The notes: a model not told the origin generated them from the sequence alone. DNA of 64,000 nucleotides from Ornithinimicrobium avium (GCF_003351765.1 NZ_CP031229.1:2376916-2440915); one strand, 5' to 3'; positions 39,121 to 59,041 are shown, counted from the stretch's first letter. Numbers and translations: made by a program.

Positions 39121-39192
39121 GCAGGCAGGGTGGCCTCTGATCCTGGGGCTCTGCAAGAACTCCCACCCGACCGCCCGATACACGCGAGGAGG

Positions 39193-39208
39193 GTGCGTCA
39201 TTCCGCCC
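39193..39208 (+). repeat. Island motif copy a (GTGCGTCATTCCGCCC, degenerate) at the left island boundary
   Basis: Read directly. Followed by the direct repeat TTCCGCCCAcTATGGG / TTCCGCCCAgAATGGG. Confidence 0.6.
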
Positions 39209-39396
39209 ACTATGGGACGCGTCCTTCCGCCCAGAATGGGCTAAGAACGACCTCGCCGAGGACAGCTAGGAATGGGTCCACATTAGGCGGAGGCTCCAAC
39301 GTTCACATTCCGAGGCAGCCCCCGGGACGCCTGCGACCAAGTGCCGTCAGTCGATTAAAGTTCCCGAATTCCTAACTCGAAAGAACAATGAGAAAT

Positions 39397-39417
39397 GTTG
39401 TCGTCAAGCACGACAAC
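39397..39417 (-). terminator. Hairpin GTTGTCGT-caagc-ACGACAAC downstream of the minus-strand gene ending at 39460
   Basis: Perfect 8-bp stem with 5-nt loop in an AT-rich stretch about 45 nt past the stop. Confidence 0.5.
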
Positions 39418-39459
39418 GGCCCCCCCAAACCACCGGAGGGCAGTCGTCCTCTCAGTTGG

Positions 39460-40410
39460 TCAGCCGAGCGTAGTCAGCAGTCTGCCCAAGGCCTCCGCGA
39501 TCGCGATCCCGCCAGATGAGCCGAGCGCGGCCACCGCCGCGCCGGACGCGTTCTCCGCGAGTCGCCTGATCACACCCGGGTCGCGAGGGCCGTTCGCCTC
39601 CGCCTCGATTTCGTCCAGACTCTCAACTACCTTCGCACGGGCTGTCGCGTCATACTCCGGGTTGGCATCTAGCAAGGCCCGCACCGCTTGGACGTCGGCC
39701 AGAACTTGCTGCCTCTGGTCGTTGCTGATCGGAGCGACCATTACATTCTGATCGCCGATCTGAACGTTCCCGCCATGGTTCGTGAACGAGCCATGTACTC
39801 CGCTGCGCTGGTCGTACGTCACCGACGATGAACCCGAGAACAGCGAACCGGTCAGCGACACGTCAGGCCTACCAAGGACTACTCGACCCTTCGGTTCCAG
39901 CCTGGTTCGCACGAAGTCCTGCTGGGCGCTGTGGAACCCGTGGATATACCCCTGAGATTCGAGGACTTTCATGCACGTTTCGCGTTCCTGCTCCGTGACT
40001 TCCGGTAGCCCGGGCATGTGCAGGTTCCATGAAGCGACCTCGGTCCACGTGACGTCCTGGCCCTTCTCGGCCATGTGGCGCAGGATCTCACGAGCCGTGT
40101 GGTCGTAGCGGTCCTGACCGGTCGCCTGCGATTCCTGCAGTTCCCTCACAACCGTCCTCCCCATCGCCGTTGGTTGGTGACCGCCACTCATCCGGCCGCT
40201 TGACCGGAGAAGACCGAGGGCCTCAAGGTCTCTCGTGTGCTCCATCACGTCGCGAGTACCGAGCCCCACCGACTTCCCTGCAGATTCGGTAGAAACGTAC
40301 TCGTTAGGTTCGTCTCCCGGGTTGTCGCCCACGGCTTCAGCTACGGCTGCCAGCAACTTGAACTGGTCGGTGCCCCTAAGCCGTGCTTTCAAAGCAGTCT
40401 TATCCATCAT
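39460..40410 (-). CDS. Hypothetical protein, possibly two tandem winged-helix-like domains plus a C-terminal domain
   Basis: Low-GC ORF. Preferred start MMDKTALKARL at 40410 with a GAAGG RBS. The longest ORF extends to 40509. Confidence 0.5.
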   Translation of the reverse strand: MMDKTALKARLRGTDQFKLLAAVAEAVGDNPGDEPNEYVSTESAGKSVGLGTRDVMEHTRDLEALGLLRSSGRMSGGHQPTAMGRTVVRELQESQATGQDRYDHTAREILRHMAEKGQDVTWTEVASWNLHMPGLPEVTEQERETCMKVLESQGYIHGFHSAQQDFVRTRLEPKGRVVLGRPDVSLTGSLFSGSSSVTYDQRSGVHGSFTNHGGNVQIGDQNVMVAPISNDQRQQVLADVQAVRALLDANPEYDATARAKVVESLDEIEAEANGPRDPGVIRRLAENASGAAVAALGSSGGIAIAEALGRLLTTLG

Positions 40411-40531
40411 TCTCGCCTTCTCGCTCGCCGCCGGAACATGGATATCGGTCGGCGGCCCTCCCGATGTTGTCAAACGGTAGTCTTGCGGACCGACACACCC
40501 CCAGGGCACGGTCTCGGGCGACTCGTCATCG

Positions 40532-40550
40532 GTGCGTCATTCCGCCGCGA
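40532..40550 (+). repeat. Island motif copy b GTGCGTCATTCCGCCGCGA
   Basis: Read directly. Confidence 0.8.
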
Positions 40551-40693
40551 CTAACTGCTCTTCCCCATTGCAGCCAGTTTGGGTCCGCCTGCTCGGCCGT
40601 TGCGAGCGAAGCAGGAATTGGTCCGCGTAGCAGCTTGCCTTGTGGGGGCGACCGGTGATGGACGGTGGCCCTCTGCCACACTCAAAGTGGCGT

Positions 40694-41554
40694 TCAGTGC
40701 TCGAGCCCAGACGTTCTAACGAAGTTCGCTATCGCGATTCCATAAAGGCAGAACGCTAGCCCTGCGGCTACTAGGAAGATCAAGGACAATGAGTCGACTC
40801 TTCCAAACTCAGGGAAGGTCTCCAGTGCCGACGGTACTGGAGAAAGAATATAGGCACAGATAACGAACCCACCGGTCGTAACGCCGCACATGCGAAGGCG
40901 CCGCAAGAGAGTGCGCTCCCTTACACTAGGTGGAGTCTTCCAGGTTCGAACCACGCGAGTGCTGCCGCGGCATCCGAGCCAAACGACAACGAAGACATAC
41001 AAGGAGGTCGGGACGATCGATCTCTCGATCCCGTAGGCGTTGAGTGCGAACACTGTGAATACGGATACCTCGTAGGCAGCGAAAGCGACGAGTGCCATGA
41101 ATACCTCAGCCAGAAGTCGGTCAGAGCCAAATGTCGGCGTCCTTCCCATCGCTTCAAGCGCACCAGCGAAGAGGGCTAACGCCCCAGCCGCCATTAATAT
41201 AACCGCCATGGCCCCGACTGCGCTGCTTCGCGCTACTGCTCGAGAGAGCAGGTCTGAGTCCTGAGACTCCCGTGCAAATTCGCCAAGGTCACTGAGGCTA
41301 GGATGCCCAGTTAGGCCGCCCCAGATGATGGCGGCGAGTATCAAGAAGACGCAGGCCATTAGCAGGAGTTTGAGGACCTGCGCGATTCTCGTCTTGTCGC
41401 CTTCGGTAGAGTTGGGGGCAGCCTTCCAGGACCGCTCAGCAATAATCGACATCAGCACCAAGATGATGCTTGCCAGGACGCCAGATAGCGTACTGTGGGC
41501 AGTTGCTGCCTCGGTGACATCCCATCCCATCAGGCAAGTGTAGTGCCCGCACAT
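40694..41554 (-). CDS. Hypothetical integral membrane protein (6-7 TM)
   Basis: 286-aa hydrophobic ORF in the low-GC region. Confidence 0.5.
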   Translation of the reverse strand: MCGHYTCLMGWDVTEAATAHSTLSGVLASIILVLMSIIAERSWKAAPNSTEGDKTRIAQVLKLLLMACVFLILAAIIWGGLTGHPSLSDLGEFARESQDSDLLSRAVARSSAVGAMAVILMAAGALALFAGALEAMGRTPTFGSDRLLAEVFMALVAFAAYEVSVFTVFALNAYGIERSIVPTSLYVFVVVWLGCRGSTRVVRTWKTPPSVRERTLLRRLRMCGVTTGGFVICAYILSPVPSALETFPEFGRVDSLSLIFLVAAGLAFCLYGIAIANFVRTSGLEH

Positions 41555-41670
41555 GGGCTGCCGTCCTAGCGCGTATCAGTTCGTTGTGTCAATCAGCGAC
41601 TTAAGTTCCGTGCCACACCCACGCGCCGTGCGGTGTCAGGCCCGAATGAGCACCCGCCACCGAACTTCGG

Positions 41671-41688
41671 CGTGTCATTTCGCCGCAA
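41671..41688 (+). repeat. Island motif copy c CGTGTCATTTCGCCGCAAG
   Basis: Read directly. Confidence 0.7.
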
Positions 41689-41975
41689 GTGGCATGCGTG
41701 GCCGGTCGAGGGGGACCAGCCGATGCTGTCCTCTCGTGCACGTGCAGGCCAACGGTCGACGCTCGGGTGGCAGGGCTTGTCGGAGCCCGTCTCTAGCATC
41801 TCGGCATGGCTCAATGCACAGCGCCCGTCGACGGTCACCGCACGGCAAGCCTCCCGGCAAGCGGCCGCACCTGCCGCAGGCGTCGCTCTTACTGCCGCCC
41901 CACCTACCCCAACGCCACTCGGCGCCTGTTTGCGGCACTAAGCGTTGAAGAATCATTTGCGTTGCGGGAGAGGGT

Positions 41976-42554
41976 ATGGTAAAGCGCGCGTGGGGCAGTT
42001 GGAGGGAGGCTTCCCGCCTGTGGGACGCGTATCTATTGCGTGTTGGGCAATGGAGACTGCTACCGAAGCTCGCGGGCGTTGCAGTTGGCGACCTCGTGCT
42101 CAGCGTGTTGCTTGCCCGCCTTTCCTTTCTCCTTTGCCTACTCTTGGGCCTTCCTATGGTGTGGTTCGAGACGATCGTCAAGTTCATCGCCTTCACGGGG
42201 GCAATCGCTTTCGCTGTAGGTCTCGGCTCAATCTGCTGGATCGGCCTGAGGGACCTCGGGCTCAAGATTGGTGGTGTCGGCGCCTTGGCGATTGCAGTCG
42301 TGAACTTCTATGTGCTGAACTATGTTATCGACTATCAAGAGTGGATTTTGACTCAGGTCTCACGGGCGAGCCCGGATCCAGGTGGTTTTGCCGAGGGCAT
42401 TGACTGGGCCAATCCTTACGCTCGCTGGTACGTCGGAGTTGTTGCCCTGCTGGGAACTTTGATTGGATTCGTCTTCAAGATTAGGAACGCCTACGGACTG
42501 CTGCGCCACGGAGAGAAGCATAAGCAATCACCGACATGGAGCCGCCTCCAGTAG
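41976..42554 (+). CDS. Hypothetical integral membrane protein (4-5 TM)
   Basis: 192-aa hydrophobic ORF. Confidence 0.5.
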   Translation: MVKRAWGSWREASRLWDAYLLRVGQWRLLPKLAGVAVGDLVLSVLLARLSFLLCLLLGLPMVWFETIVKFIAFTGAIAFAVGLGSICWIGLRDLGLKIGGVGALAIAVVNFYVLNYVIDYQEWILTQVSRASPDPGGFAEGIDWANPYARWYVGVVALLGTLIGFVFKIRNAYGLLRHGEKHKQSPTWSRLQ

Positions 42555-42664
42555 GGACCATCCAAGCAAGTACTACGCCAGCTTGGTAACCCATCCGTAA
42601 GCGACCCGGGTGGGCACGTCCTTTTCCCGCGGACTCGCTTGTCGCGAGTCAGCGAGTCCGACCG

Positions 42665-42688
42665 GTGCGTCATTCCGCCGCGAGCGGA
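42665..42688 (+). repeat. Island motif copy d GTGCGTCATTCCGCCGCGAGCGGACG, directly 5' of the conserved integrase leader (42697-42786)
   Basis: Read directly. Confidence 0.8.
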
Positions 42689-42786
42689 CGCGGAGTCGGG
42701 CGCCGTAGCGTCGTTGGGGTCAGTGCCTCGTCGCGCTGGCGGCGGGCGTCGACAGTGGCCCTACGAGGTCGCCGCAGGAGGCGACC

Positions 42787-43710
42787 ATGTCCACCACGAC
42801 CAGCTCCACCGCGGCACTGCCGTTCCAGCCGTCCTCGATGAGCCCTGCGCAACTGGCAGCGGTCTCGTTCTTGGCTCGCTACTCCGGAGCGACTCACGCC
42901 CTGTACCGGGCACATCTGGGTCGCTGGTTCGCCTGGTGCGAGACCAACGCGTTGGACCCGTTGGTCGGGATACAGCGTGCGCACGTCGAGCTCTACATCC
43001 GTGACCTCGGGGACGCCGGCCTGATGGACTCCTCGGTGAACACGATGATGCACGCCGTGCGCGGGTACTTCCGGTTCGCGCACATCGACGGCACCATCCC
43101 CGCCGACCCGGCCGTGTACGCCCGGCTCCCGAAGGTCCACCGGGACGAGTCGCGCACCCAGGGCCTGGACCGGCTGGAGCTGATCCGCTTCCTCCAGGTC
43201 GCCCAGACGATCTCCGTCCACCACGGCGCGCTGGCCTACCTGCTCGGGATCAACGCCCTGCGCGCCTCCGAGGCCGCGGCCGTTCGCATCGAGGACTACA
43301 CCGACGTCCTGCGCGGCCACCGGGTGCTGCACCTGGTTGGCAAGGGCAACAAGCCCGCCACCATGCCGCTGACCGTTCCCGTCCTGCGGGTCCTGGAGGC
43401 CTGCCGCGGTGAGCGCACCACCGGGCCGCTGATCCTGCGACCGCTCTCCGGGAGACCGATCGACCGTCGTGACGTCTACCGGATGGTGCAGCGCATCGCG
43501 AGGAGCGCGCGGATCCCCAGGCACATCAGCCCCCACTCGCTACGGCACGCCGCCATCACCAACGCCCTGGACGCCGGCGTGCCCCTGCGCGACGCCCAGA
43601 TCCTCGCCCGTCACGCTGACCCCAGAACCACCGAGCACTACGACCGAGCCCGCGGCAACCTCGACCGCCACGGCGTCCACTTCCTCACCGCCTACGTCGC
43701 CGGCGTATAG
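42787..43710 (+). CDS. Tyrosine recombinase/integrase (XerD-like, 307 aa), copy 1
   Basis: N-terminal SAM-like core-binding domain. C-terminal catalytic R...HSLRHA...ARHADPRTTEHYD (R-H-R-Y). About 98% identical to the copy at 47742. Confidence 0.85.
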   Translation: MSTTTSSTAALPFQPSSMSPAQLAAVSFLARYSGATHALYRAHLGRWFAWCETNALDPLVGIQRAHVELYIRDLGDAGLMDSSVNTMMHAVRGYFRFAHIDGTIPADPAVYARLPKVHRDESRTQGLDRLELIRFLQVAQTISVHHGALAYLLGINALRASEAAAVRIEDYTDVLRGHRVLHLVGKGNKPATMPLTVPVLRVLEACRGERTTGPLILRPLSGRPIDRRDVYRMVQRIARSARIPRHISPHSLRHAAITNALDAGVPLRDAQILARHADPRTTEHYDRARGNLDRHGVHFLTAYVAGV

Positions 43711-43872
43711 GTACGCGGCCGACTACGTCAGATCCGCCCAGGATGATGTACCTGCGTGTGGGGCCTCAGGGGTCATCACAGGCCGCAGGTGACCAGCGCG
43801 TAGGCACCTGGGTTGGCGTGCAGGGAGAGGTGCGAGGAAACCCCGACTACTCTACGAAAGGATTATCTTACA

Positions 43873-44082
43873 TGAGAGCCGTCAACACCAGCACATTCCG
43901 CAGGAAACACGCCGATCAGATCACCGCTATGTCAGGAGTCCTGGGGGCAGCCGCCGAACCCCACGGCTCGGACAAGGAGTCGGCAGGGGCCGAGCGTTCG
44001 GCTACCTGTTGTGTCGCCCCGTATTGTCAATGGCCAAGAAGCCGACGTCAGGGTCCGGGTCTGGCCCTGTCCAGTCCTTGAT
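43873..44082 (+). CDS. Possible small Cys-containing ORF (69 aa)
   Basis: AAAGGA RBS 9 nt upstream of the ATG. Overlaps the 3' end of the antisense EF-hand pseudogene. Weak. Confidence 0.2.
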
Positions 44083-44306
44083 ACAGATCACCCCGTCCCC
44101 GTTCTTGTCGATGGTGTCAAAGAATCCCGGATTGTAAAGAATCCCGGATTGTCCGGGTTCACCAAGGTGGTGTTTTCCACCCACGGGCCCAGGCACTGTC
44201 CCCCCGCGGGAGGCACGGCCAAAGCGGTAACCGGTCCTACAGCGCCCAAGCCCAATGCAATCGCGACACATCCAAGAGCGCGGCGAGTGCGGTAATGACG
44301 ATCCAT
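44002..44306 (-). pseudogene. Secreted EF-hand calcium-binding protein gene inactivated by a 17-bp tandem duplication
   Basis: ATG 44306 with GGGAGG RBS. Signal peptide MDRHYRTRRALGCVAIALGLGAVGPVTALA. Frame breaks at the duplication, after which DTIDKNGDGVICIKDW (a DxNxDG loop) continues in another frame. NPGFF is encoded twice. Confidence 0.7.
44119..44152. repeat. Perfect 17-bp tandem duplication AAAGAATCCCGGATTGT x2
   Basis: Read directly. 17 is not a multiple of 3, so it causes a frameshift. Confidence 0.9.
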
Positions 44307-44763
44307 GACGACCTCCCTGTAAGCACGAAAGTGGGTCACCTCAGTGTTCTGCGGCCCTGCTCGCATGTCAACAGGCGGATCACAGCGGACGCCCGCCTCT
44401 GCCGCCGGTCGGTCGTTTCGGCGTGCGTCAATCCGCCGCATAGGGACGCGTCTTGGCGCCCGGACTGTGTGCTCCCTCCGTATCCAACGGAACCTCTGGC
44501 TCGCAGAAAACGCGCCGGTCGCCAACCTCGTCCCAGACAGGTGGAGCACCTGACCGCCCTCGCCCCTCCCTGACCCATCAGCGCTCATCCTGTCCCGACC
44601 AGCTAGCACACCGCCTGGGACCATGGAAAACTGACGTCGCGGAAGGCCGTCCGGAACTCTGTCCTACCCCAGTGCCAGAACTACCCCCCGACATCTCCTG
44701 CAACGCCGTCACACCACGGCCGACGGCGACCCACGAAAGAACGAGGATGGGCAATCTATTCAG

Positions 44764-45936
44764 CTAGTTTAGCGGTCGATTGCCGATCTTATCATGGATC
44801 GCGTCCTCATTCTCCATGTAAATTTGAGCTATGTCGCCGTCACCATTCGGCGCACCTAAGTAGTTTTGATTTATGGCGTTGGCCATCGAGTCGCTAGTAA
44901 AGGGCACTTCTAGTGGGTACAACATGAAGCGATTATCGACCGAAAATTCGGCGGTGAGTAGTTCACTGGTCGCACCATCGATGTAGTGGAGCGTGATGTC
45001 GTCATGTCGATTTCGCTCATCAGGGAAGAAATTGATCTGAGCGCCAAGGACAACGCTGTCAGCCGGCAAGGCGTCAGCCGTGGCGATCATCTGCCGGAGA
45101 CCAGCGTGGTCGAGCGCCGACGGACAGTCGAATTCATCCTCACAAAGTGTGCGGTCTTCGCCTGTCTCTGCCATGCCCCGTATCAGATAGGTACCCATAG
45201 CATCGAATATCCTTTGTGATTCTGGCATTACCCGATCGATATCTATGCCTAGCTCATCCTTGTTGACGAGATAGACGTTTAGGACGGCAGTGATATTTTC
45301 ACCAGCTGCCACCGCGATTTCAACCGATTCCGTCCCCCCACCAGGGGTCTCTAAGTCAGCCAGCCACGTGTTGTCTTCACGATCTATCAAGTCGGCGTGG
45401 TGGGCAAGAGGCGTCGATGCGCCCCTCTCGACCAGGAAGTTTTCGACATAATTACGCCCTGCTTCCGGTGCGGAACCTAGTATCCAATCGTGGTCCAGGC
45501 CCGCGTAGAAGGCTCGCATCTGGCTGATGTCCCCACCGTCATGAAAGTACGGCACCCGTTCAGTTGCAAATCTGAAGTCGACAGCTGCCGGCTCAGTATC
45601 GCTGGCTGTTGGGTCAACCACCTCTCCACCGGCCGGGCTGGGCGGGTCGATTTCGACAGGGGCGCTTGGCTGGACCCCAGCCGACGCGGTTGATACAGGT
45701 GGGGTTTGCTCGGCTCCGGGCTCGGTCTCGCCGTCGCCCAGGGTTGAGCCGACGAGTACGCCTCCACCCAGCAGCACCACTCCCGCCGCGACTCCGCCGA
45801 TTAATTTACTCCGGCTCTTTCGCTTGGCCTCCGCCTCACGCATGCGCGCAAGTTCGGCCCCTTCTTCGTCCACCACGTCGTGCTCCCTCAGTCCACGGAT
45901 GCCGGGATCGTACAACAACCCGCGTCGCGCCCGCAC
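44764..45936 (-). CDS. Hypothetical single-pass membrane-anchored protein with a large extracytoplasmic domain
   Basis: 390 aa, about 50% GC. Lys/Arg-rich N-terminus, TM helix LIGGVAAGVVLLGGGVLVG. Confidence 0.5.
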   Translation of the reverse strand: MRARRGLLYDPGIRGLREHDVVDEEGAELARMREAEAKRKSRSKLIGGVAAGVVLLGGGVLVGSTLGDGETEPGAEQTPPVSTASAGVQPSAPVEIDPPSPAGGEVVDPTASDTEPAAVDFRFATERVPYFHDGGDISQMRAFYAGLDHDWILGSAPEAGRNYVENFLVERGASTPLAHHADLIDREDNTWLADLETPGGGTESVEIAVAAGENITAVLNVYLVNKDELGIDIDRVMPESQRIFDAMGTYLIRGMAETGEDRTLCEDEFDCPSALDHAGLRQMIATADALPADSVVLGAQINFFPDERNRHDDITLHYIDGATSELLTAEFSVDNRFMLYPLEVPFTSDSMANAINQNYLGAPNGDGDIAQIYMENEDAIHDKIGNRPLN

Positions 45937-46181
45937 CGGACCGCTCGCGGCACCGAGAGTCCCTCCCGTAATCGATGAGCACCCGGGTTACGTGTTCAGT
46001 GTCTGTGTACTTCATCAGGACCCTCCTGCGCTACAACGTCGCTGTAGCCTTCGACGACCCTGATACGACGTTCTTGATGTCGTAGAAGCATTTGCCCGGA
46101 CGAGTGTGCCTTGGTCTCTTGTCTGCCATATCCGGGCTTGCTTCCCACTGAACTCATCGGCATTGGGTCGATCGTTGCGGA

Positions 46182-46207
46182 GTGCGTCATTTCGCCGCGA
46201 GCGGACC
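46182..46207 (+). repeat. Island motif copy e GTGCGTCATTTCGCCGCGAGCGGACC
   Basis: Read directly. Followed by GCGCCGGCGTAGTGGGACTCGG, resembling block 2 of copy d. Confidence 0.8.
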
Positions 46208-46237
46208 TGCGCCGGCGTAGTGGGACTCGGTGGATCG

Positions 46238-46501
46238 TCAGCGACGTTGGTAGATGTCGCGTCTGTGGCCGACGGCCACGACCAGGACGAGAAGGACGTC
46301 GTCGCGGATCTCGTAGATGATGCGGTAGTCGCCAGTGCGAACCCGCCACTCACCGTTTCCACCGACGAGTTTCTTCGCCGCATTGGGCCGGGGTTGGTCC
46401 GCGAGCAGCTCGACCGCTGCCTGCACGCGGCGCCGCGCATCTGGGTTGAGCTTACGCAGCTGGCGCACCGCGGCAGGCGCGACCTCGACGCGATATGTCA
46501 T
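46238..46501 (-). CDS. RelE/ParE-family type II toxin
   Basis: 87 aa: MTYRVEVAPAAVRQLRKL...GEWRVRTGDYRIIYEIRDDVLLVLVVAVGHRRDIY. ATGA overlap with the antitoxin. Confidence 0.8.
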   Translation of the reverse strand: MTYRVEVAPAAVRQLRKLNPDARRRVQAAVELLADQPRPNAAKKLVGGNGEWRVRTGDYRIIYEIRDDVLLVLVVAVGHRRDIYQRR

Positions 46502-46761
46502 GCCAGGCCGAGGTCGGCCTTGACCTGATCCCACGGGATGGCAGTCTCGCCCTCGTCCAGCTCGGCTCGGGCGGCCCGGGCGGCCTCGATGTCGGCAAGG
46601 TCCTCCGCGGCTGCGATCAACCCGTCCAGATCGTTGGCATCGATCACGGCAGCCACCCGCCGGCCACGACGGGTCAGGTAGATCGGGTCGTGCCCGATGC
46701 GGGCGGCATCGACGACATCCGCCAGTCGAGCTCGGGCGTCGCTGACAGTGATCTCTCTCAT
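46498..46761 (-). CDS. Phd/YefM-family type II antitoxin
   Basis: 87 aa: MREITVSDARARLADVVDAARIGHDPIYLTRRGRRVAAVIDANDLD. Confidence 0.8.
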   Translation of the reverse strand: MREITVSDARARLADVVDAARIGHDPIYLTRRGRRVAAVIDANDLDGLIAAAEDLADIEAARAARAELDEGETAIPWDQVKADLGLA

Positions 46762-46902: not shown

Positions 46903-46952
46903 TAGGTATGGACGGTAGCGGCCCCGGAGAGGAAGTCCAGCTCGCCGTGGCC

Positions 46953-51457: not shown

Positions 51458-51587
51458 CCCGACACCGTCGCGGCGGACGCGCGTCACCAGGCGGGCCACA
51501 AGGAACCCTCGGGTCGGGATGGCCAACTGCACCCCGCTTCGCCCGTGCTGGTTAGTCACGAAACCCCTTGCACGCCGCAGCCGACAA

Positions 51588-51608
51588 GCGCGTCACTTCG
51601 CCGCGAGC
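51588..51608 (+). repeat. Island motif copy g GCGCGTCACTTCGCCGCGAGC
   Basis: Read directly. Confidence 0.75.
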
Positions 51609-51676
51609 CGGGCGCTTTTACTCGCGTCGTGGGTAGCAGTTGGAGGGCGAGCCGCCGTGTAGACGGAATCATCTAC

Positions 51677-51892
51677 ATGGCGTACCGTTGCCACATGGCC
51701 GAGACGACGACGATACGCATCAGCCGGGACACCCACGCCCGGGTCACCCGCTTGGCGGCCGAGCGCCACGAGACGATCGACGAGTTGGTGAGCAGCGCTC
51801 TGAGAGCGCTGCGCCAAGACGGCATGGGCCGCGACCTGTCCGAAGATCTCACTGAGGATGAGACGGCCTGGCTCGATGCTGACGCCGGGTGA
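51677..51892 (+). CDS. Ribbon-helix-helix (MazE/CopG-like) antitoxin
   Basis: TTIRISRDTHARVTRLAAERHETIDELVSSAL. Start at 51677 or 51695. 17-nt overlap with the toxin gene. Confidence 0.65.
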   Translation: MAYRCHMAETTTIRISRDTHARVTRLAAERHETIDELVSSALRALRQDGMGRDLSEDLTEDETAWLDADAG

Positions 51893-52214
51893 CGTCGTCG
51901 AGCTCGACCTCGGCACTCCGGCCGGTAGCGAGGCGGGGCTACATCGTCCCGCGGTCGTCGTCACTGCCGCACGGGTGCTGGCGGGTGGACCGAACGTCGT
52001 GCAGGTAGTGCCGCTGACCCGCACCATCCGGTCCAGCAGCACCGAAGTGGTCATCGACCCTGATCACGGCAACCGTCTTGCAGAGCGTTCCTCGGCGCAG
52101 TGCCAGCACGTGCGATCTGTGGCCACCTCGCGTATCCAGCACCGCACCGGAAATGTCGGCCCCGTAGTACTCGGCGAGGTCCGAGAGACCCTCGCGCTGC
52201 TGCTGGACCTCTAA
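51876..52214 (+). CDS. MazF/PemK-family endoribonuclease toxin
   Basis: MLTPGDVVELDLGTPAGSEAGLHRPAVVVTA...VQVVPLTRTIR. Confidence 0.75.
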   Translation: MLTPGDVVELDLGTPAGSEAGLHRPAVVVTAARVLAGGPNVVQVVPLTRTIRSSSTEVVIDPDHGNRLAERSSAQCQHVRSVATSRIQHRTGNVGPVVLGEVRETLALLLDL

Positions 52215-52265
52215 CGTCCCTCGGCGCGGGCCCTCGACGAGAGTCCAGCGCTTCGACGTAGCCCC

Positions 52266-52280
52266 TTCCGCCGCGTTTCG
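52266..52280 (+). repeat. Degenerate island motif copy h (CCTTCCGCCGCGTTT), preceded by block 2 GCGCTTCGACGTAGC
   Basis: Read directly. The block order is reversed relative to copies d and e. Confidence 0.45.
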
Positions 52281-52381
52281 CCATTTGTAGGCCTTGTCGA
52301 AGTCCGTCTAGACCTCGAGAAGTTGGATGTTGGACTCGCTTGATCGGTCACTGTTGGAGAGGGCTTGGCTACGAGGGTTGG

Positions 52382-52684
52382 TCAGCCCCAGAAGATGTGG
52401 GTGGGGTCGCGGTCTATCTCGTCTAGGAGGGACTCGATGGTGCGTGCGGACCCGACCCGGTCGTACAGGTGGAAGCGGAGGTTGCGGTCCCTCCAGTACA
52501 AGGTCCAGGCCTTGTCCTTTGCGGTGTATCGCAGGCGCGCGATGGGCAGGCTCGTCCATTCGGGTCCGAAGTCCTCGCGCCAGGGCGCGCGCCGCTCGAC
52601 GATGGTCAGGTGTCGGTCGCTCTGGAACGGCCACCGGTCAGGCTCCGTTGCTGCCGGCTGCGGCGTTGAGCGCTTCGAAGGCAA
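52382..52684 (-). CDS. Small hypothetical protein (DUF3024-like?)
   Basis: 100 aa: WTLYWRDRNLRFHLYD. Confidence 0.4.
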   Translation of the reverse strand: MPSKRSTPQPAATEPDRWPFQSDRHLTIVERRAPWREDFGPEWTSLPIARLRYTAKDKAWTLYWRDRNLRFHLYDRVGSARTIESLLDEIDRDPTHIFWG

Positions 52685-53222
52685 CGTCGAGTCGCCGCTG
52701 GCGACGCATGTCAGTTTCGTGGTTGGCTTCGGCTGCGAGGGACCCGATGAGTTCCTCCAGTCCGTCTTCGGTGGCAGGCAGGACGACCTTGCCGGTGGCG
52801 TGAGGATGGATCCGGAACACCAACCGTTGAGAGTCGACGTCGAGCAGGTTCAGTTCGCGCAGCGTCGCTGCCACCTCGGTGGGGATGAGGATCTGGTGGA
52901 CGGGCTCGGCGCGAGCGAGCCGTCGCGGTCGCAGGTCGAACGGTGAATCGGCCCAGTTACTGATGCGGCCCTGGTCTGCGCAGCTGCTGCACTGCCAACG
53001 GATCGGAACCGAGACGTCGAGGTCGCGGTGCAGAACCATCCGGCCCGGGCAGGCACGGTGGCCGGGGCGGCGGCGACATGGCAGCGCGCTCTCCCAAGCT
53101 GTACCCGCGTCGCCTGCGGTGGCCGCGCTGACGAGGTCGCCCAGCTGCTCGGCAAGCCGGCGTGCGGGGCCTGGTGCATCCAGGGGCAGGTCGAGGAAGT
53201 GCTGCAGATCGGTGACCATCAT
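52638..53222 (-). CDS. Hypothetical Cys-rich protein
   Basis: 194 aa. CRRRPGHRACPGR...WQCSSCADQGR is a possible Zn ribbon. 47-nt overlap with the downstream ORF. Confidence 0.4.
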   Translation of the reverse strand: MMVTDLQHFLDLPLDAPGPARRLAEQLGDLVSAATAGDAGTAWESALPCRRRPGHRACPGRMVLHRDLDVSVPIRWQCSSCADQGRISNWADSPFDLRPRRLARAEPVHQILIPTEVAATLRELNLLDVDSQRLVFRIHPHATGKVVLPATEDGLEELIGSLAAEANHETDMRRQRRLDVAFEALNAAAGSNGA

Positions 53223-53341
53223 CGCCCCGGAACTGTACCTGCCGCCAGGGCTGGGCTACGGCTCGGTGTACACCCGCGTCACCGCCGCGAGAAGACCTGG
53301 AGGGTTGCGGTCCCACCGGATGGAGCCAGCTCTGCGTGGCT

Positions 53342-53861
53342 TCAGGGATTCCGGTTAGCCCTTGCCGGGAGGTGCTCGACGAGGACTCGCCCCGGCTTCC
53401 AGGTGATTCCGGCGACCGAGCGCAGCGGCGCGAACGGGTCGGCTGCCCGCTGCCAGGCCACCGCCAGGCTGGCCGAGATCTCCGTTGCCTCGTCCGGGCA
53501 TGCCCGGGCGGCCAACCGGCGCAGCGCCTGCACGTCAGTGAGCTTGGCCGTGACGCTCCACGTGGCCGTCCCGTGATCGACGGAGTCGCCCCTGGCCTCG
53601 CTCTCCACCGACAGCATCCGCAGGGCGCCGGCCTCCAGCGCCCCCTCCAGTCCATGACTGGGCCAGATCAGCCAGGCAAGTGCATCGAAGACGTCATCGC
53701 CGGGCGCGGTATCCGGTGCCTCACCCTCGGCGTCGTCGAGGCCGAGGTCTCCGCCCGAGGCGGCGATCACGACACCCTCGTCCGCCCGCGCCGCGGCCTG
53801 CAGGGCTGCAGGATCAGTGATGGTGATCTCCGCGGTGGCGGTCAGTTCCCACAGACCCGTG
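53342..53861 (-). pseudogene. geneX paralogue B, 3' fragment (disrupted by IS110)
   Basis: WELTATAEITITDPAALQAAARADEGVVIAASGGDLG... is about 85% identical to the copy at 46953. It joins in-frame to the IS110 transposase C-terminus, producing the chimeric 502-aa ORF. Confidence 0.7.
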
Positions 53862-55081
53862 AATAACCCGGGCCAGGGCGTGCGCGGGAGCGCGTCGGGC
53901 GGAGCCCGACACGTCGTTCCGGTATACTGGTTGCGGCGGGCCAACCAGTCCGCACCGACGTCAAGGTAGGGCTCGTCGTTCTTGAGCATGTGGTAGGCGC
54001 ACACCAGAATCGAGTGCGCGACCGCGACCTGAGCCCGACCCGCCCCGCGGCGCTTGGTCAGGCGGGCGTGCTGGGCCGCGAGATAGTTCTTGCCCTTCAT
54101 CCGTCCCACCGAGCCAGCGGACTCGACCAGCATCGCGCATAGCCACTTGTTGCCATGCCGGGTACCGGAGGGTCGAGTGCGGCCCGCTGACTGGTACACC
54201 GAGGGTGCCAGCCCTGCCCAGGAGGCCAGGTGCGCCGCGGAAGGAAAGCGCGACATATCGGCTCCGGTCTCAGCCACGATCACCTGGGCGACGCGTTCAC
54301 CGACAGAAGGGATCGTCTGCAACAGCTCGATCTGGTGAGCCCACGGCGCGCAGGCGACCGTGATCGCCTCGTCGGCCTCGACCAGGTCCTGCTCGACCAT
54401 GTCCAGCCGGTTCAGGATGGAGCGGGCCAGCTGGGCGTGGTGGGCGTCGAAGTGCCCCTCCAACGCCTGGGCCAGGTCGGGGATCTTGCGGCGCATCTTG
54501 CCCTTGGCCAGCTCGGCCAGCACCAGCGGGTCCCGTTCCCCGGCGATCATCGCCGCCAGCATCGCCCGGGCCGAGACCGTGGTCAGCGTGGACGCGACCG
54601 ATGACAGCTTGATGGAGGCGTCCTCCAGCATCATTTCCAGGCGGATGCACTCCCGGGTCCGGTCGCCCATCAGCTGCACCCGGTAGCGGGTCAGCATCCG
54701 CAGCGAGCGGATCCCCGGCGGCGGCACGAACGAGGGCGCCAGCAATCCGTGCTCCAGCAGCTGGGCGATCCACTCCGCGTCCCGCACGTCGGTCTTGCGA
54801 CCCGGCACCGCCTTCATGTGCGCGGCGTTGAGCAACCACACCTCCATCACCTCCTCCAGGCAGTAGAACGGCTTTCAGTACGTCGAGGTCGACTCCATCG
54901 CCGCGATCGTGACCCCGCACTCGGTCAGCCAGTCCCGCATCACCCGCAACGACCCGGTCGTCGTCTTGAACGTGCGCGTCTCCGCGTGCCGGCCACGCCG
55001 GGCTCCCGGGGTGCGCACGCACACCGTCACCGAGTCCTTGCCGACGTCCAACCCGGCCACCCGCTCGAAGAGCACTTGCAT
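53862..55081 (-). pseudogene. IS110 transposase with an in-frame TGA (W-to-stop) at 54875-54877 and an aberrant 3' end
   Basis: MESTSTY*KPFYCLEEVMEVWLLNAAHMKAVPGRKTDV. The expected SYWKP tryptophan codon reads TGA. The C-terminus diverges from the second copy after DEPYLDVGADW. Confidence 0.7.
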
Positions 55082-55312
55082 CTGTCCCAGCTCCCTTCCC
55101 AGTCATCGGCCGCGACCATCGCGACCCGACGCCGTCCGGAAGACCCTCTGCCAGGACACAGACCCGCGTGCTCGTAGCAACAATCCAGCGACACCCGAGG
55201 ACCTCGCGTCATACACCTCTACGGGCTCACCCGCACCAGTGTGTGTCGACGTCGCCGGACGACACCCCCATTCTCAGCGACCGGCACAGGGACCGCAGGT
55301 CCCAAGTCCGTT
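53862..55312 (-). mobile_element. IS110-family insertion sequence (1451 bp, no inverted or direct repeats) inserted in geneX-B
   Basis: Flanks reconstruct an uninterrupted geneX (agagaggtgt|IS|gggaactgacc). The transposase has the DEDD N-terminus VAGLDVGKD and LLQTIPSVG...LASWAGLAPS. Confidence 0.75.
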
Positions 55313-55406
55313 ACACCTCTCGGGTCCTCCCGCGGTGCCCTCGTTCGGCAGGAAGTTGCGTCTCGCGATCGGGCAGCTCAAAGAGCCCAGGCTGGTCGGG
55401 ATCCAT
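55313..55406 (-). pseudogene. geneX paralogue B, 5' fragment (MDPDQPGLFELPDRETQLPAERGHRGRTREV)
   Basis: ATG at 55406. It ends at the IS110 right end. Confidence 0.65.
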
Positions 55407-55600
55407 GGCGACCCACCCTATGCCCGTCATCCCACTGGTTTGATGTCTGGCGGGCACGGTCGCGCGGGCGCGTCATAGCGTGCTCATCGCCGGAGGCGAT
55501 GCTTGTGCGCTTCGACGTAGCGTCGAAGTCGTTCAGAGCCTCGTCGCGCTAGCCGCGGGCACCGCTGAGGCCCCAGTCCAGGTCGCCGCAGGAGGCGACC

Positions 55601-56161
55601 ACGTCCACCACGACCACCTCAAGGACGGTGCCGCCGTTCCAGCCGTCCTCGATGAGCCGCACGGCTCGCGGCGGTCTCGTTCCTGGCCCGGTACTCCGGG
55701 GCCACGCATAACGCATGCCCTGTCAACACGATGATGCACGCCGTCCGGGGCTACTTCCGGTTCGCGCACATCGACGGCACCATCCCGGCCGACCCGGCCG
55801 TGTACGCCCGGCTCCCGAGAGTCCAGCGGGACAAGTCCCGCACCCAGGGCCGGGCCTGGACCGGCTGGAGCTGATCCGCTTCCTTCAGGTCGCCCAGACC
55901 ATCGTCCACCACGGCGCACTGGCCTACCTGCTCGGGATCAAATCACTGCGCGTCTCCGAGGCCGCAGCCGTGCGCCTCGAGGACTACACCGACGTCCTGC
56001 GGGGCCACCCGGTGCTGCACCTGCTCGGCAAGGGCAACAGGCCGCGCCACGATGCCGCTAATGGTCCCAGTCTTGCGGGTCCTCGAAGTCCGCCGCAGGG
56101 GAGCGCACCACAGGCCCGCTGATCCTGCGCTCGCTCTCTGTGCTATGGCACGCCGCCATCA
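55601..56161 (+). pseudogene. Tyrosine recombinase copy 3, decayed (start ATG to ACG, internal ~140-bp deletion, frameshifts, 3' truncation by IS110 fragment)
   Basis: Leader and coding sequence align to copies 1 and 2 (LDRLELIRFLQVAQTI-VHHGALAYLLGI...). The start reads gcgaccACGtccacc. Confidence 0.75.
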
Positions 56162-56690
56162 CTAACGCCCTGGACGCAGGTCATCGTGGCCGAGACCGGC
56201 GCGGACATGTCCCGCTTCCCTTCCGCCGCGCACCTGGCCTCCTGGGTCGGGATCGCCCCCGGCGTGTACGAGTCCGCGGGCAAGACCCGTCCGGCCGGCA
56301 CCCGGCACGGCAACAAGTGGCTCTGCGCGATGCTCGTCGAGGCCGCCGGATCGGTGGCGCGAGGGCACGGGAAGAACTACCTCGCCGCGCAGCACACCCG
56401 CCTGGCCAAACGCCGCGGCCGGGGCAGAAGCCAGGTCGCGGTCGCGCACTCGTTCCTGGTGTCGGCCTACCACATGCTCATCAACGACGAGCCCTACCGC
56501 GACCTCGGCGCTCACTGGGTGTCGCGCCGGACCCAGGAAGCCCACACCCGCCGCCTCGCCGCACAGCTGGAACGGCTCGGTCATATGGTCGTCATCGACC
56601 CAGCCGCCTGACCCTCCGGTCCGGAACGACGTGCCGGTCTCCGCCCGCGCCCTCACGGGCACGCCTCGGCCGGGTTATTCACGGGTCTGT
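56162..56690 (+). mobile_element. IS110-family fragment (3' half; transposase C-terminal 141 codons at 56186..56611) in opposite orientation to the first copy
   Basis: AETGADMSRFPSAAHLASWVGIAPGVYESAG... is about 85% identical to the first copy. It shares the terminal sequence CCCGGGTTATTCACGGGTCTGT. Confidence 0.7.
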
Positions 56691-56691
56691 G

Positions 56692-57069
56692 TCAGTGCAC
56701 CCCGAAGCAGAGCGGGTGGCCTGCTGGGCTGGCGTAGACAGCAAACATCTCGTTGCCATCGGGGTTGTCGGCTGGTCTCTTCGCTGCCTGCAGTTGGCGA
56801 CCTCCGAGAGCGACCGCAAGCCGACCGGCCTGCGCCAAGTCCTCCACGTGCAGGTCCAGGTGCACCTGTTGCTGTTGTTGGCCGCTGGGCCATTCCGGGG
56901 CCGCGTGGTTGGGGGCGAGCTGCACACCCATCACCCACTCGCCGTTGACCACGATGCTGTGCCAGTCCTCGTCGCGGTGCACCTCACCACCCAGGAGGCC
57001 CGCCCAAAATCTGCTCTCGGCCTCGATATCGCTGGCGTCGAACACGATCACCCGCCTGATGACCTTCAC
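56692..57069 (-). CDS. VOC-family (glyoxalase/bleomycin-resistance fold) protein
   Basis: 125 aa. GTG start overlaps the upstream stop (GTGA). Confidence 0.6.
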   Translation of the reverse strand: MKVIRRVIVFDASDIEAESRFWAGLLGGEVHRDEDWHSIVVNGEWVMGVQLAPNHAAPEWPSGQQQQQVHLDLHVEDLAQAGRLAVALGGRQLQAAKRPADNPDGNEMFAVYASPAGHPLCFGVH

Positions 57070-57896
57070 GTCGGCTCCTGTTCTCGCACCAACGATGCAA
57101 CGTACGAAATGTACGACTGACTGCGGAGTGCTGGCATCCACCAGATGCGCCAACGATGCACTGCTCGGGCCGCGGGGGACGCTGACCGCGAACGCAAGGC
57201 TATGCCGCTGAGCCAGAATCGACGTATGAAGCGACTGATCAAGGCGGTGCCGCTGTGTTCCGCGACGAGGATGGCCGCCAGTGCCCAGCTGATGAGGAGG
57301 CCAACGGTGAGCGCTGGCGGCAGGTACCAGAAGACGAGGAACCCAGCAACCGCCGTCAGTGGCAGCGCGCAGATCAACGACCACGCCACTGGTTTCGGCA
57401 GGACCCCGTGACGCAGTGCCGAGACACCGCAGGCCTCGGTCCCTCCGATGGCCAGGAGCAGCGCCGCCAGGTCGATCAACCAGCCGTAGCTCGGAGTGCT
57501 GTACTCCAAGCCGATGGCCGCCGTCGCCACGAGAAGGCCGATGCGGGTGCCCCAACGCGCGAGCGTCCATGGCACCAAGCTGGTGACCGACCACACGAAG
57601 GGAAGCGCTGCTGCGAGAGAGAGGAAGAAAGGTCCGCGCCACCACCACACCGGCTGTCCGCCGGCCACGAGGGGGAGGGTCTCTGCCATCCATCGGCCTA
57701 CGGTCGACGCTCCGGGAGGCATCTCGTGGAAGGCACCCCCGGCGCTCAGTTCCCACTGGACGGCCATCGCGGCACCGAGCACGGTGGCCCACACGGGGGC
57801 CACCACGGCGAGGGCGCGCTTCCACACAGGAACTCGCATACCCCATTCTGCGGCAGAGGTCGGCGACAATGCCCCGGCCATGTAGGAGTGACGCAA
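57066..57896 (-). CDS. Hypothetical integral membrane protein
   Basis: 276-aa Trp-rich hydrophobic ORF. The start is uncertain. Confidence 0.45.
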   Translation of the reverse strand: MRHSYMAGALSPTSAAEWGMRVPVWKRALAVVAPVWATVLGAAMAVQWELSAGGAFHEMPPGASTVGRWMAETLPLVAGGQPVWWWRGPFFLSLAAALPFVWSVTSLVPWTLARWGTRIGLLVATAAIGLEYSTPSYGWLIDLAALLLAIGGTEACGVSALRHGVLPKPVAWSLICALPLTAVAGFLVFWYLPPALTVGLLISWALAAILVAEHSGTALISRFIRRFWLSGIALRSRSASPAARAVHRWRIWWMPALRSQSYISYVASLVREQEPT

Positions 57897-58014
57897 CTAC
57901 TGAGCCCCACGCTGCCAGCGAAGCCCCCGACGAACGCGCGCATCCGCCGCCGGGCGGACGTCCCAGTAGGAAGGCTGACTCCCGCGGCACATGGCGGCAG
58001 CGCGGCATTCGGGT

Positions 58015-58230
58015 TCAGCGGGCGCAGATCTGGTTGTTGCGGGCCTGGTGAGTTAGTTCTGCGAGGTCGAGCGCCTCGAGGAGCGGCGGAAGGTACATGC
58101 CGAATCTGCGGCGGTATCCCTTGCGCAGTCGGTACCAGCCCCCGACCGGGTTGTCCGGGGAACGGCCCCAGGCCTCCACGGTGCCAGGGGCAGGGTCCTT
58201 CTTCTCGTCGGCAGCACCTTCCTCAGCCAT
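58015..58230 (-). CDS. Small hypothetical protein (71 aa)
   Basis: AAGAGG RBS 7 nt upstream of the ATG. Confidence 0.4.
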   Translation of the reverse strand: MAEEGAADEKKDPAPGTVEAWGRSPDNPVGGWYRLRKGYRRRFGMYLPPLLEALDLAELTHQARNNQICAR

Positions 58231-58545
58231 GAGTACCTCTTAGTGGAGTCCACCAAAGTGGTGCACGACGATCCCCGGTGAGCGTGTCCTACCAGCCGGT
58301 CAAAGCGACCGCCTCGTCCAGCATCCGGCGCCGATCCCTCTTAGACGACCTCACGTACGCCCTTGGCGTATCGCGTCGTGATCTGCGTACGGCGACCTCA
58401 CCGACAACACACCGTCCATGTCCTAGGGTGCACCCGTCGACACGATTTCGCGAGCAGTCCCTCGTTGAGGCACCGGACCACGTACTCTGGGCATTGGTGT
58501 CATCGGGGTGTTGCGGAGGTGGGGGCGGCCTGCGAACCTCGACGC

Positions 58546-58896
58546 ATGAGAGTCGTGCGCATCATTCCCGACCTGCCCGTCGACAGCATCGCCGCGGCGG
58601 ATGAGTTCTACGGCGGCTTCCTCGGCCTGGAGCGCCAAGAAATGGGCCTTGACTGGGTAGCGCGTTACCTCGCGCCTTCGGGGGCAAGCTTGCAGATCCT
58701 CACGCACGATGCGTCAGCTGCGGACGTCCCCGCTGTCTCCATCGCGGTCGATGACGTGGACGAGGCCTACGAGGAAGCACTCCGCCGCGGCTACGAAGTC
58801 GTGCACCCGCTGACGACCGAGCCGTGGGGGGTTCGACGCTTCTTCGTGCGAACGCCTGATGGGCAGGTTCTGAACATCTTGCGTCACCACCAGTAG
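58546..58896 (+). CDS. VOC-family (glyoxalase-like) protein
   Basis: 116 aa: MRVVRIIPDLPVDSIAAADEFYGGFLGLE.... Confidence 0.6.
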   Translation: MRVVRIIPDLPVDSIAAADEFYGGFLGLERQEMGLDWVARYLAPSGASLQILTHDASAADVPAVSIAVDDVDEAYEEALRRGYEVVHPLTTEPWGVRRFFVRTPDGQVLNILRHHQ

Positions 58897-59041
58897 GCAT
58901 CCGCTCCTGCCGCGGATCGCTCGTTCGTGGGTGCGGCCAGCTGCACGAGGGCGTCGAGCGGCACGCCGCATCACCGGGTGCCAGGTCCCGTCCTGCGTCG
59001 ACCGGGCGGCGGGCCAACCGTGTCGCCGGTCGGTGTGGGGA

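Follow-up and report, generated by a model that had tools for sequence, protein, structure and literature searches.

A number of described systems assemble or remodel bacterial DNA through recombination at short sites. In pdif modules, which occur on Acinetobacter plasmids, and in integrative mobile elements exploiting Xer recombination (IMEX), small modules are bounded by two-armed core sites of ~28 bp that are used by XerC/XerD; the pdif sites alternate. Tycheposons of Prochlorococcus (10.1101/2020.12.28.424599) and the island PAISt of Streptomyces turgidiscabies (PMC4057263) are tandem, tyrosine-recombinase-driven cargo units, which insert at tRNA genes or at a single 8-bp palindrome within bacA; each tycheposon normally has an integrase. 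Arm-less integrases of the Brujita type are described as simple and directionless (PMC8138268). Complete integrons are reported to be absent from Actinobacteria (PMC4889954), and the attC sites of integrons are targeted by one group of the IS1111/IS110 insertion sequences (IS), which pick specific targets via a guide RNA (PMC11187229). Here these systems serve as background to a stretch of 64,000 nucleotides of Ornithinimicrobium avium (GCF_003351765.1, NZ_CP031229.1:2376916-2440915; termed here the window), 20 kb of which are accessory DNA interrupting a conserved CoA-metabolism neighbourhood. An earlier reading of the sequence (termed here the original prediction) had called these 20 kb a lower-GC mosaic island. 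The mosaic follows a regular grammar that the original prediction had not recognised, in which a co-oriented site delimits cassettes and is accompanied by a dedicated recombinase family: to judge from its sequence, the left two thirds of the island (39.19-52.29 kb) are very probably an array of at least ten gene cassettes bounded by co-oriented sites.

The sites were detected by repeat analysis, then by a fuzzy search and then with a position weight matrix (PWM). The motif, GTGCGTCATTCCGCCGC(gagcGGACGC), delimits units across 39.19-52.29 kb in co-oriented copies, which are found on the plus strand at positions 39197, 39221, 40536, 41674, 42669, 44427, 46186, 46887, 51592 and (weakly) 52262. 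The PWM finds no site of 15 bits or more on either strand of the remaining 44 kb of the window, and a 19-mer of the motif matches the window four times versus 0.11 times expected by chance. The site's consensus of ~28 bp comprises a conserved left arm and centre, tGCGTCAtT-CCGCCGC, and a weakly conserved right arm, which is sometimes an inverted GACGC; its information is concentrated in the 16 nt tGCGTCATTCCGCCGC.

All of the individual copies lie on the plus strand; by PWM score, nine reach at least 17.9 bits, and two weaker ones (10.5-13 bits) are the second half of the left-edge double site and the last site. The left edge is marked by a double site (39193-39244), GTGCGTCATTCCGCCCACTATGGGACGC and then GCGTCCTTCCGCCCAGAATGGGC (19.3 and 13.0 bits), which lies 75 nt past the stop codon of a thiolase gene. 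It is followed by sites S2 (40532-40559, GTGCGTCATTCCGCCGCGACTAAC, 26.0 bits), S3 (41670-41697, GCGTGTCATTTCGCCGCAAGTGGC, 23.3 bits) and S4 (42665-42692, GTGCGTCATTCCGCCGCGAGCGGACGCG); the last of these, at 29.7 bits the best in the window, is located 95 nt upstream of the recombinase gene intA and has an outer dyad, GCGTC..N15..GACGC. Further along are S5 (44423-44450, GTGCGTCAATCCGCCGCATAGGGACGCG, 24.7 bits), S6 (46182-46209, GTGCGTCATTTCGCCGCGAGCGGACC, 28.3 bits), S6' (46883-46910, CCGCATCACTTCGCCGCGAGTAGG, 17.9 bits), S8 (51588-51615, GCGCGTCACTTCGCCGCGAGCCGG, 22.8 bits) and, directly after the stop codon of a MazF gene, a weak last site (52258-52285, GTAGCCCCTTCCGCCGCGTTTCGC, 10.5 bits). 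Degenerate sites occur 3' of intA (43723-43750, ACGTCAGATCCGCCCAGGATGATG) and on both sides of a second recombinase gene, intB: upstream (47624-47650, CACGTCTCATCGCCGGGCGGGTCC, which aligns with S4 in the three-copy alignment) and 3' (48674-48702, ACGTCAGTTCCGCCCAGATAGACGC).

The recombinase belongs to a widespread family. Its homologues number in the thousands, the best of them (85-97% identical) being distributed over many genera of Actinomycetota, namely Ornithinimicrobium, Nocardioides, Terrabacter, Pedococcus, Humibacillus and Flexivirga, as well as many metagenome-assembled genomes (MAGs). At least 413 copies occur among 185,579 species-representative genomes (one genome per species), and metagenomes contain more than 4,600 protein clusters. 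For comparison, 80 loci from other genera, with 10-kb flanks, were kept of the 413 relatives (83-95% amino-acid identity; 1.3 Mb in total). The motif is present in about 75 of these 80 loci, where it occurs up to 12 times per 20 kb at a median spacing of 1.7 kb, and sites of at least 15 bits lie on the strand of the recombinase gene in 326 cases versus 5 on the opposite strand. In these other loci a site is commonly found ~100-130 nt upstream of the recombinase start codon.

Comparisons between loci show that cassettes recur in different surroundings. A Phycicoccus (L077) and an unrelated MAG (L017) share a 1,119-nt cassette, at 87.7% identity, within unrelated flanks: the homology extends from the CCGCCGC of the left site to the end of the right site; the left halves of the two left sites differ; and the two right sites have a variant base of their GCGTCAC in common. 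From this half-site pattern, the exchange can be located between GTCA(T) and (T)CCGCC. Over all loci, ends of non-recombinase homology fall within -10 to +30 nt of a site 19 times versus 3.7 times expected (maximum of 11 in 1000 randomisations). L041 and L066 retain the gene order int-P-Q, with one versus five cassettes between P and Q, and a 920-nt cassette (97.4% identical) is located downstream of int in L041 and upstream of it in L074, the int genes themselves being only 89% identical. In Humibacillus xanthopallidus, as in Pedococcus bigeumensis, two strains of the species share almost nothing except the ~1.04-kb int unit (upstream site through stop codon), the surroundings being otherwise unrelated. 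Two cassettes of the window, cassette 1 and the MazF cassette, also tie in with this shared pool.

The cargo is heterogeneous. The largest ORFs (open reading frames) of 131 cassettes match 96 Pfam families, none of them more than three times, including GNAT acetyltransferases, GmrSD and HNH nucleases, PIN domains, luciferase-like monooxygenases, hydrolases, a GntP permease and numerous DUFs; many cassette ORFs, like most of those in the window, match no family. Relative to the site, the largest ORF of a cassette shows no preferred strand (100 minus, 86 plus). As in integrons, site-bounded cassettes are exchangeable between arrays; the co-oriented, promoterless cassettes of integrons are not seen, given this 100 to 86 distribution.

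The island as a whole (39121-59080; 19,960 bp) lies between two convergent genes: a thiolase (37936-39120, plus strand; PF00108/PF02803) and a methylmalonyl-CoA-mutase-family gene (MM_CoA_mutase; 59081 to about 60610, minus strand; PF01642, 2e-176), the stop codon of which occupies 59081-59083 on the minus strand by frame analysis. The thiolase matches that of O. avium at 394 of 394 residues (100% identity), which assigns the window to this species. In O. cavernae (L082) 39 bp separate the orthologous thiolase (88% amino-acid identity) from a convergent block of MM_CoA_mutase, AMP-ligase and acyl-CoA synthetase genes, and by tblastx the 85-87% orthology runs to 39120 and resumes at 59084, with nothing orthologous in between. 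From this 39-bp spacing and exact break in synteny, it follows that the segment is an insertion. In O. faecis the thiolase-mutase spacer holds another, 1.3-kb filler (a Zn-dependent alcohol dehydrogenase and a small ORF), so that at the syntenic position one relative is empty and the other differently filled, as expected for a genomic island. Segment 39121-59080 is almost certainly an insertion into a once-contiguous CoA-metabolism neighbourhood, just as the original prediction had proposed, and O. cavernae supplies the empty site that it had named as a check. Its view that the island does not sit at a tRNA gene likewise agrees with the data: the lone ARAGORN call in the island, a 79-nt tRNA-Gly(TCC) within a cassette (44601-44679, minus strand), has no Rfam match even at E<=1 and is probably a false positive, and a tRNA target was rejected. 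Also rejected was the notion that the island's response regulator and kinase are displaced core genes: the pair is only ~50% identical to that of O. cavernae (tblastx), and the regulator is therefore a paralogue rather than an orthologue.

The 39-bp spacer of O. cavernae (L082:11186-11224) holds an inverted repeat of its own, GACGCCcggggtGGCGTC, which is presumably a terminator shared by the two convergent genes; the GGCGTCA within it is similar to the site's left arm, yet its score is less than 6 bits. The closest relative found, MAG L081 (contig QEUR01000023.1), has a thiolase 93% identical and the same upstream synteny. Although labelled 'Acidobacteria bacterium', its contig is plainly Ornithinimicrobium-like and has probably been mis-binned. 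The thiolase-mutase spacer may be a general, recurrent hot spot of insertion.

Base composition likewise sets the island apart, its average GC of 0.658 comparing with 0.736 for 1-39120 and 0.743 for 59081-64000. Within it the averages are 0.617 (39121-46185), 0.679 (46186-52261) and 0.681 (52262-59080), and 44 of 78 overlapping 500-nt windows fall below 0.674, which is the minimum of 173 such windows outside. Between 39.1 and 46.2 kb the 500-nt values range from 0.52 to 0.71, with a bump of 0.70 over the recombinase gene; only a few, around 40.5-41.5, 42.0-42.5 and 44.5-45.5 kb, are below 58%. The sharp drop in GC after the thiolase stop that had been predicted is thus present, whereas the predicted values are several points too low: 50-58% was given for 39.2-46.1 kb (measured average 0.617 over 39.1-46.2 kb) and 62-66% thereafter (0.68 over 46.2-59.1 kb). 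The predicted boundaries are right to within tens of bases of the thiolase stop (39120) and the mutase stop (59081-59083), and the 24-bp palindrome announced at 59042 exists as a perfect 12+12 sequence, GGCGCTGCTCCGCGGAGCAGCGCC (59042-59065); this is probably the terminator of the mutase gene and is therefore assigned to the host flank rather than to the island. The contents that had been listed were all recovered, namely three recombinase copies, two toxin-antitoxin pairs, an IS110 copy and fragment, and pseudogenes (intC, the 201-aa gene that IS110 interrupts, and a fragment of DUF6855); so were the CoA-metabolism genes on both flanks, with the thiolase on the left and, on the right, MM_CoA_mutase together with an AMP-dependent ligase and an acyl-CoA synthetase of the NDP-forming type.

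Low GC, integrase genes, toxin-antitoxin pairs, IS copies and pseudogenes are also what an ordinary island acquired in one piece would contain--that is, a decayed integrative element, an integrative and conjugative element (ICE) or a prophage remnant, with generic integrases and incidental repeats--and the lack of sites in the right third of the island, together with the other foreign DNA at the same spot in L081, would suit such an origin. It is nevertheless very unlikely. No phage, conjugation or defence families are found with Pfam, PHROGs and PADLOC (PADLOC matches nothing and PHROGs only the integrase), and the recombinase has no match in PLSDB at E<=1e-40 and no close relative in IMG/VR; a prophage, defence-island or plasmid origin was rejected on these grounds. 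Moreover, GC jumps between neighbouring units (from 0.585 to 0.703, a difference of up to 12 points), as expected for piecemeal acquisition; arrays of the same motif surround the same recombinase in ~75 of 80 loci with a strand bias of 326:5; and cassettes move individually.

The recombinase is encoded by two intact genes: intA (42787-43710, plus strand), which specifies an arm-less tyrosine recombinase of 307 residues (PF00589, PF02899), and intB (47742-48665, plus strand), which is 96.7% identical to intA in amino acids and 94.7% in nucleotides. A third copy, intC (55601-56180, plus strand), has decayed: its start codon has changed from ATG to ACG, it has internal deletions and its 3' end is cut by an IS110 fragment. 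Because 33 of the codon differences between intA and intB are synonymous and 10 nonsynonymous, both copies are judged to be under purifying selection. The protein consists only of a core-binding SAM-like domain and a catalytic domain, the composition of a simple arm-less tyrosine recombinase. Its alignment to Pyrococcus XerA (4a8e) covers the catalytic motifs LRxSE, GKGxK, HxLRH and H..Y, with the catalytic residues R-K-H-R-H-Y, and the enzyme looks functional.

Several lines of comparison locate this protein among tyrosine recombinases. It falls short of the equivalog cutoffs for host XerC (100.8 bits vs 335) and XerD (87.9 vs 330), loci carry several copies of it, and the gene is absent from syntenic loci of relatives. 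Against models of the integron integrase IntI, it scores 45.4 bits vs a cutoff of 265 with TIGR02249 (over residues 226-287 only) and 18.6 vs 435 with NF011946, and its alignment to IntI4 (2a3v) is limited to 58 C-terminal residues. The best annotated relatives are integrases of Arthrobacter and Gordonia phages (51-53% identity over 94% of the length), which are of the simple, arm-less type that Brujita exemplifies (PMC8138268), and Brujita gp33 is detectable in a search of the PDB. These scores and alignments describe a distantly Xer-like recombinase that is neither an XerC/XerD orthologue nor an integron integrase. A resemblance of the site to a phage attP was considered and rejected, there being no motif near the integrase of Arthrobacter phage Seahorse.

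The leader 5' of the recombinase start codon is itself conserved: it reads GGTCGCCGC(A/G)(G/T)GAGG(C/T)GACC ATG in the window (42766-42789, 47721-47744 and 55580-55603), and is likewise conserved in most of L001-L080. A hairpin over the ribosome-binding site (RBS) was considered for this leader and dropped, since the sequence is conserved, yet the alignment contains no compensatory changes. Many close homologues of the recombinase lie on metagenomic contigs of 1.0-2.5 kb, a pattern suggesting that short-read assemblies of soil Actinomycetota are systematically interrupted at the repeated units.

Sites also flank the recombinase genes, which form units of their own, and three copies occur in one array. 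This raises an alternative in which small integrative elements, each with its own integrase, accreted in tandem at one attachment site, the integrase-less units being deletion derivatives (as with cis-mobilizable elements (CIMEs) or tycheposons). Tycheposons do form comparable tandem arrays, and the recombinase unit is found, flanked by sites, in unrelated contexts among strains of one species. Most units, however, are only 0.7-1.8 kb long, contain 1-2 ORFs and retain no recombinase remnant; in several genomes, cassettes of identical type have no recombinase beside them; and the island is not at a tRNA gene or other conserved target. Tandem accretion is very improbable as an account of this array; it differs from individually mobile cassettes mainly in the history that it proposes, not in the chemistry.

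With regard to the structure of the site, a minority of copies form a ~28-bp dyad, GCGTC-N15-GACGC, in which the GACGC is inverted 15 nt further on. The site that opens a recombinase unit usually reads CCGCCGC(C/G)TGCGGACGC. A second class of right half, (T)CCGCCCA(C/G)nnnG(G/A)C(GC), has better symmetry and is often CCGCCCACTATGGG, sometimes doubled; among 84 recombinase copies, about half have such a site directly after the stop codon (examples being L001, L004, L022, L046, L065, L080, L085 and L086), and the degenerate site 3' of intA is of this variant too. The double site at the left edge of the island has this CCGCCCA right half, which in other genomes is also found just 3' of the recombinase gene. 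Sites of this second class may be a preferred target or attI-like. In L002, L029 and L049 CCGCCCA-type sites also occur ~6.0 kb upstream of the recombinase gene; a larger, ~7-kb element was considered there and attributed to coincidence, the intervening DNA being unrelated.

The site does not look like a folded, attC-like substrate. No base-pair covariation exists in it at any fixed register, no Rfam family matches it, and single-strand folding around it is only marginally more stable than in controls (-15.1 vs -13.4 kcal/mol, an excess of 1.8 kcal/mol). Folded attC-like sites were consequently rejected: what is conserved is the sequence, not a structure as in the attC of integrons. The simpler reading is that the substrate of the enzyme would be a double-stranded core site rather than a folded strand.

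At least five loci carry a ~1.46-kb IS110-family element with the domains DEDD_Tnp_IS110 and Transposase_20. In three of them (L028:16181-17646, L037:2263-3705 and L075:8424-9890) it lies inside a site, between GCGTCATTT (left) and CCGCGTG... (right), at the crossover point inferred above; related copies occur in L053 and L032. The element thus appears to target the recombination site itself, and its insertion within the site fits the known targeting of single sequences by IS1111/IS110 elements (PMC11187229), a striking parallel with the elements that target integron attC sites and an independent hint that the site matters.

That the motif might instead be a regulatory or structural element (an operator, a repeat of the repetitive extragenic palindromic (REP) type or a terminator), as its intergenic location and slightly more stable folding could suggest, is scarcely credible given that its orientation follows the recombinase gene rather than the neighbouring ORFs (100 to 86), that it shows no covariation, that homology between genomes begins and ends at it, that neither the remainder of the window nor the empty-site loci contain it, and that it is the apparent target of the IS110 element.

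Certain observations weigh against a site-bounded cassette array, or against its extending over the whole island. The region 52.3-59.08 kb holds no site above 10.5 bits, so that the PWM scan recognises the double site at the left edge (39193-39244) and none at the right. Neither the empty O. cavernae spacer nor that of O. faecis contains a site-like sequence of 6 bits or more. In the closest relative, the DNA that follows the thiolase (L081:11186-13673) is of a different kind, again of lower GC (0.59-0.66) and with other genes, and no sites are visible in the 2.5 kb of this insert that are available. The site has a poorly conserved right arm, with GACGC at +18/+19 in only 10% of sites, or in 19% if G[AG]CGC is allowed. 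Most ends of BLAST homology do not coincide with sites, which is because alignments fade inside diverged genes. Two metagenomic contigs of ~1.05-1.1 kb that carry the recombinase are linear, without terminal overlap, and are not circles. Finally, distant homologues of the protein encoded by cassette 1 (61% and 42% identity) have no sites nearby.

The sites cut 39.19-52.29 kb into at least ten units of 670-2,908 bp with 1-3 ORFs each, most of the cassette ORFs being antisense to the sites. Cassette 1 (39197-40535, GC 0.618) carries a 349-aa ORF (39460-40509, minus strand) that matches nothing in Pfam, NCBIfam or PADLOC and has only four homologues in 5.8 billion proteins; the closest (95% identical, L093) has a site at the same relative position on its contig. 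Cassette 2 (40536-41673, GC 0.585) and cassette 3 (41674-42668, GC 0.606) each encode a membrane-protein-like product without a family match, of 286 aa (40694-41554, minus strand) and 192 aa (41976-42554, plus strand), respectively. These are followed by the intA unit (42669 to about 43728, GC 0.703), by a small unit with no convincing gene (43729-44426), and by a cassette (44427-46185, GC 0.588) with a 390-aa ORF (44764-45936, minus strand), again without a family match.

The next cassette (46186-46886) encodes a toxin-antitoxin pair (46238-46761, minus strand), consisting of a ParE toxin (46238-46501; PF05016, 2e-15) and a Phd/YefM antitoxin (46498-46761; PF02604, 9e-17). The intB unit includes, divergent from intB, a 201-aa ORF that matches no family (46953-47559, minus strand); a second copy of this gene (53326-53853 plus 55313-55429, minus strand) is split by an IS110 element, as seen from repeats D4, D5 and D8. 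For intB and intC alike, the 201-aa ORF lies on the upstream side in divergent orientation, and in L072 a relative of it adjoins the recombinase gene; its product may act as an accessory factor, or the ORF may simply be a hitch-hiking cassette. A three-gene unit (48712-51457) then comprises a two-component pair, namely a LuxR-type response regulator (48712-49380, minus strand) and a HisKA_3 histidine kinase (49377-50651, minus strand), together with a 237-aa ORF (50744-51457, plus strand). The last cassette (51592-52261) encodes an antitoxin (about 51695-51892) and MazF/PemK (51858-52214; PF02452, 2.6e-16), both within 51695-52214 on the plus strand, and is 78% identical in nucleotides to cassettes in L042 and L074.

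To the right of the last site lies an IS110-family insertion sequence of 1,459 bp (53854-55312, minus strand), the limits of which follow from the same repeats, D4, D5 and D8. Both of the family's domains are recognised in it (PF01548 at 3e-14, over profile positions 72-152 only; PF02371 at 4e-19); the first 70 residues of the DEDD domain went undetected, so that damage to the gene is probable. An inverted partial copy (56177-56691, plus strand; repeats I1, I9 and I11) retains part of Transposase_20 (PF02371, 9e-13) and terminal sequence. The remaining cargo or debris (56692-58896, GC 0.64-0.69) has no recognisable sites and no counterpart between thiolase and mutase in the relatives examined; it comprises a Glyoxalase_6 domain (about 56704-57048, minus strand), a C-terminal DUF6855 fragment (58015-58230, minus strand) and a glyoxalase-family ORF (58363-58896, plus strand). 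The right third holds, in addition, two overlapping ORFs without family assignment. We infer that the right third is an older, decayed part of the same array that was reworked by IS110; it could also be unrelated cargo that was acquired separately.

The following mechanism would account for these features. Foreign DNA has accumulated in a short spacer between convergent CoA-metabolism genes, where an array would have been seeded by a recombinase unit landing at a secondary site, in this case the thiolase-mutase spacer. The dedicated arm-less tyrosine recombinase would pair and recombine any two sites, exchanging strands within the central TCCGCC region, probably near ...GTCAT|TCCGCC...; a cassette would thereby be excised as a circle, whose junction would read ...GCGTCAT|TCCGCCGC..., and could be re-inserted at another site. 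In this way an array would grow, shrink and be shuffled one cassette at a time, and cassettes would pass from genome to genome. A directionless type of enzyme would suit such a system. Because cassette ORFs face either way, they presumably have their own promoters, and toxin-antitoxin cassettes would probably stabilise an array by hindering its loss. The O. avium recombinase copies, two of which are intact, may well be active at present.

Full-text searches, including searches with the motif sequence, returned no description of such a system, subscription-only papers lying outside their coverage. The chances appear about even that the system is both real and so far undescribed, being an independently evolved, integron-analogous form of gene capture in Actinomycetota. 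On this reading, an arm-less recombinase related to actinophage integrases would mobilise both itself and very diverse cassettes of one or two genes via a conserved ~28-bp site; and the chromosomal arrays so built would occupy loci that vary among Micrococcales, Propionibacteriales, Jiangellales and numerous soil MAGs. How small islets of accessory genes are assembled in soil actinobacteria is poorly explained, and a cassette system, if true, would supply a mechanism; it would constitute a second natural example of gene-cassette evolution, comparable with integrons, and would account for the breaks in short-read assemblies, where many homologues lie on contigs of 1-2 kb. With the motif as a guide, a large reservoir of unannotated cassette genes could be mined. 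Moreover, given that the recombinase is 83-97% identical across several orders and that its site is simple and sequence-defined, this compact recombinase-site pair could serve in the engineering of high-GC Gram-positive bacteria.

Among the described systems, those using pdif sites and IMEX resemble the array in their short ~28-bp sites, in modules that recur in different contexts and in an Xer-like recombinase; they differ in that the element here brings its own recombinase instead of relying on the host XerCD, in that all of its sites are direct, and in that its arrays are chromosomal. The motif is not known to resemble actinobacterial dif sites. Brujita-type integrases are similar in size (~300 aa) and likewise consist only of a core-binding SAM-like and a catalytic domain; they appear to differ in context, inasmuch as phage genes are lacking here and many sites per genome take the place of one attP/attB pair. 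With tycheposons and PAISt the array has in common tandem cargo units driven by tyrosine recombinases and a remodelled island whose repeated short sites permit modular excision. The units of those systems are larger, whereas here they are mostly integrase-less single genes, and the ~28-bp site is carried by the cassettes themselves.

Integrons share with this system arrays of mostly single-gene, site-bounded cassettes, a diverse and largely unannotated cassette pool that includes toxin-antitoxin genes, cassettes common to different hosts in shuffled order, and an IS110/IS1111-type element that targets the sites (PMC11187229). Unlike integrons, however, the system has a recombinase other than IntI and sites defined by a conserved sequence of 16-20 nt rather than by variable attC hairpins; its recombinase gene is located within the array, where it is flanked by sites, often present in several copies and co-oriented with the sites; its cassette ORFs face both ways, so that the logic of a common Pc promoter does not apply; and its hosts are Actinomycetota.

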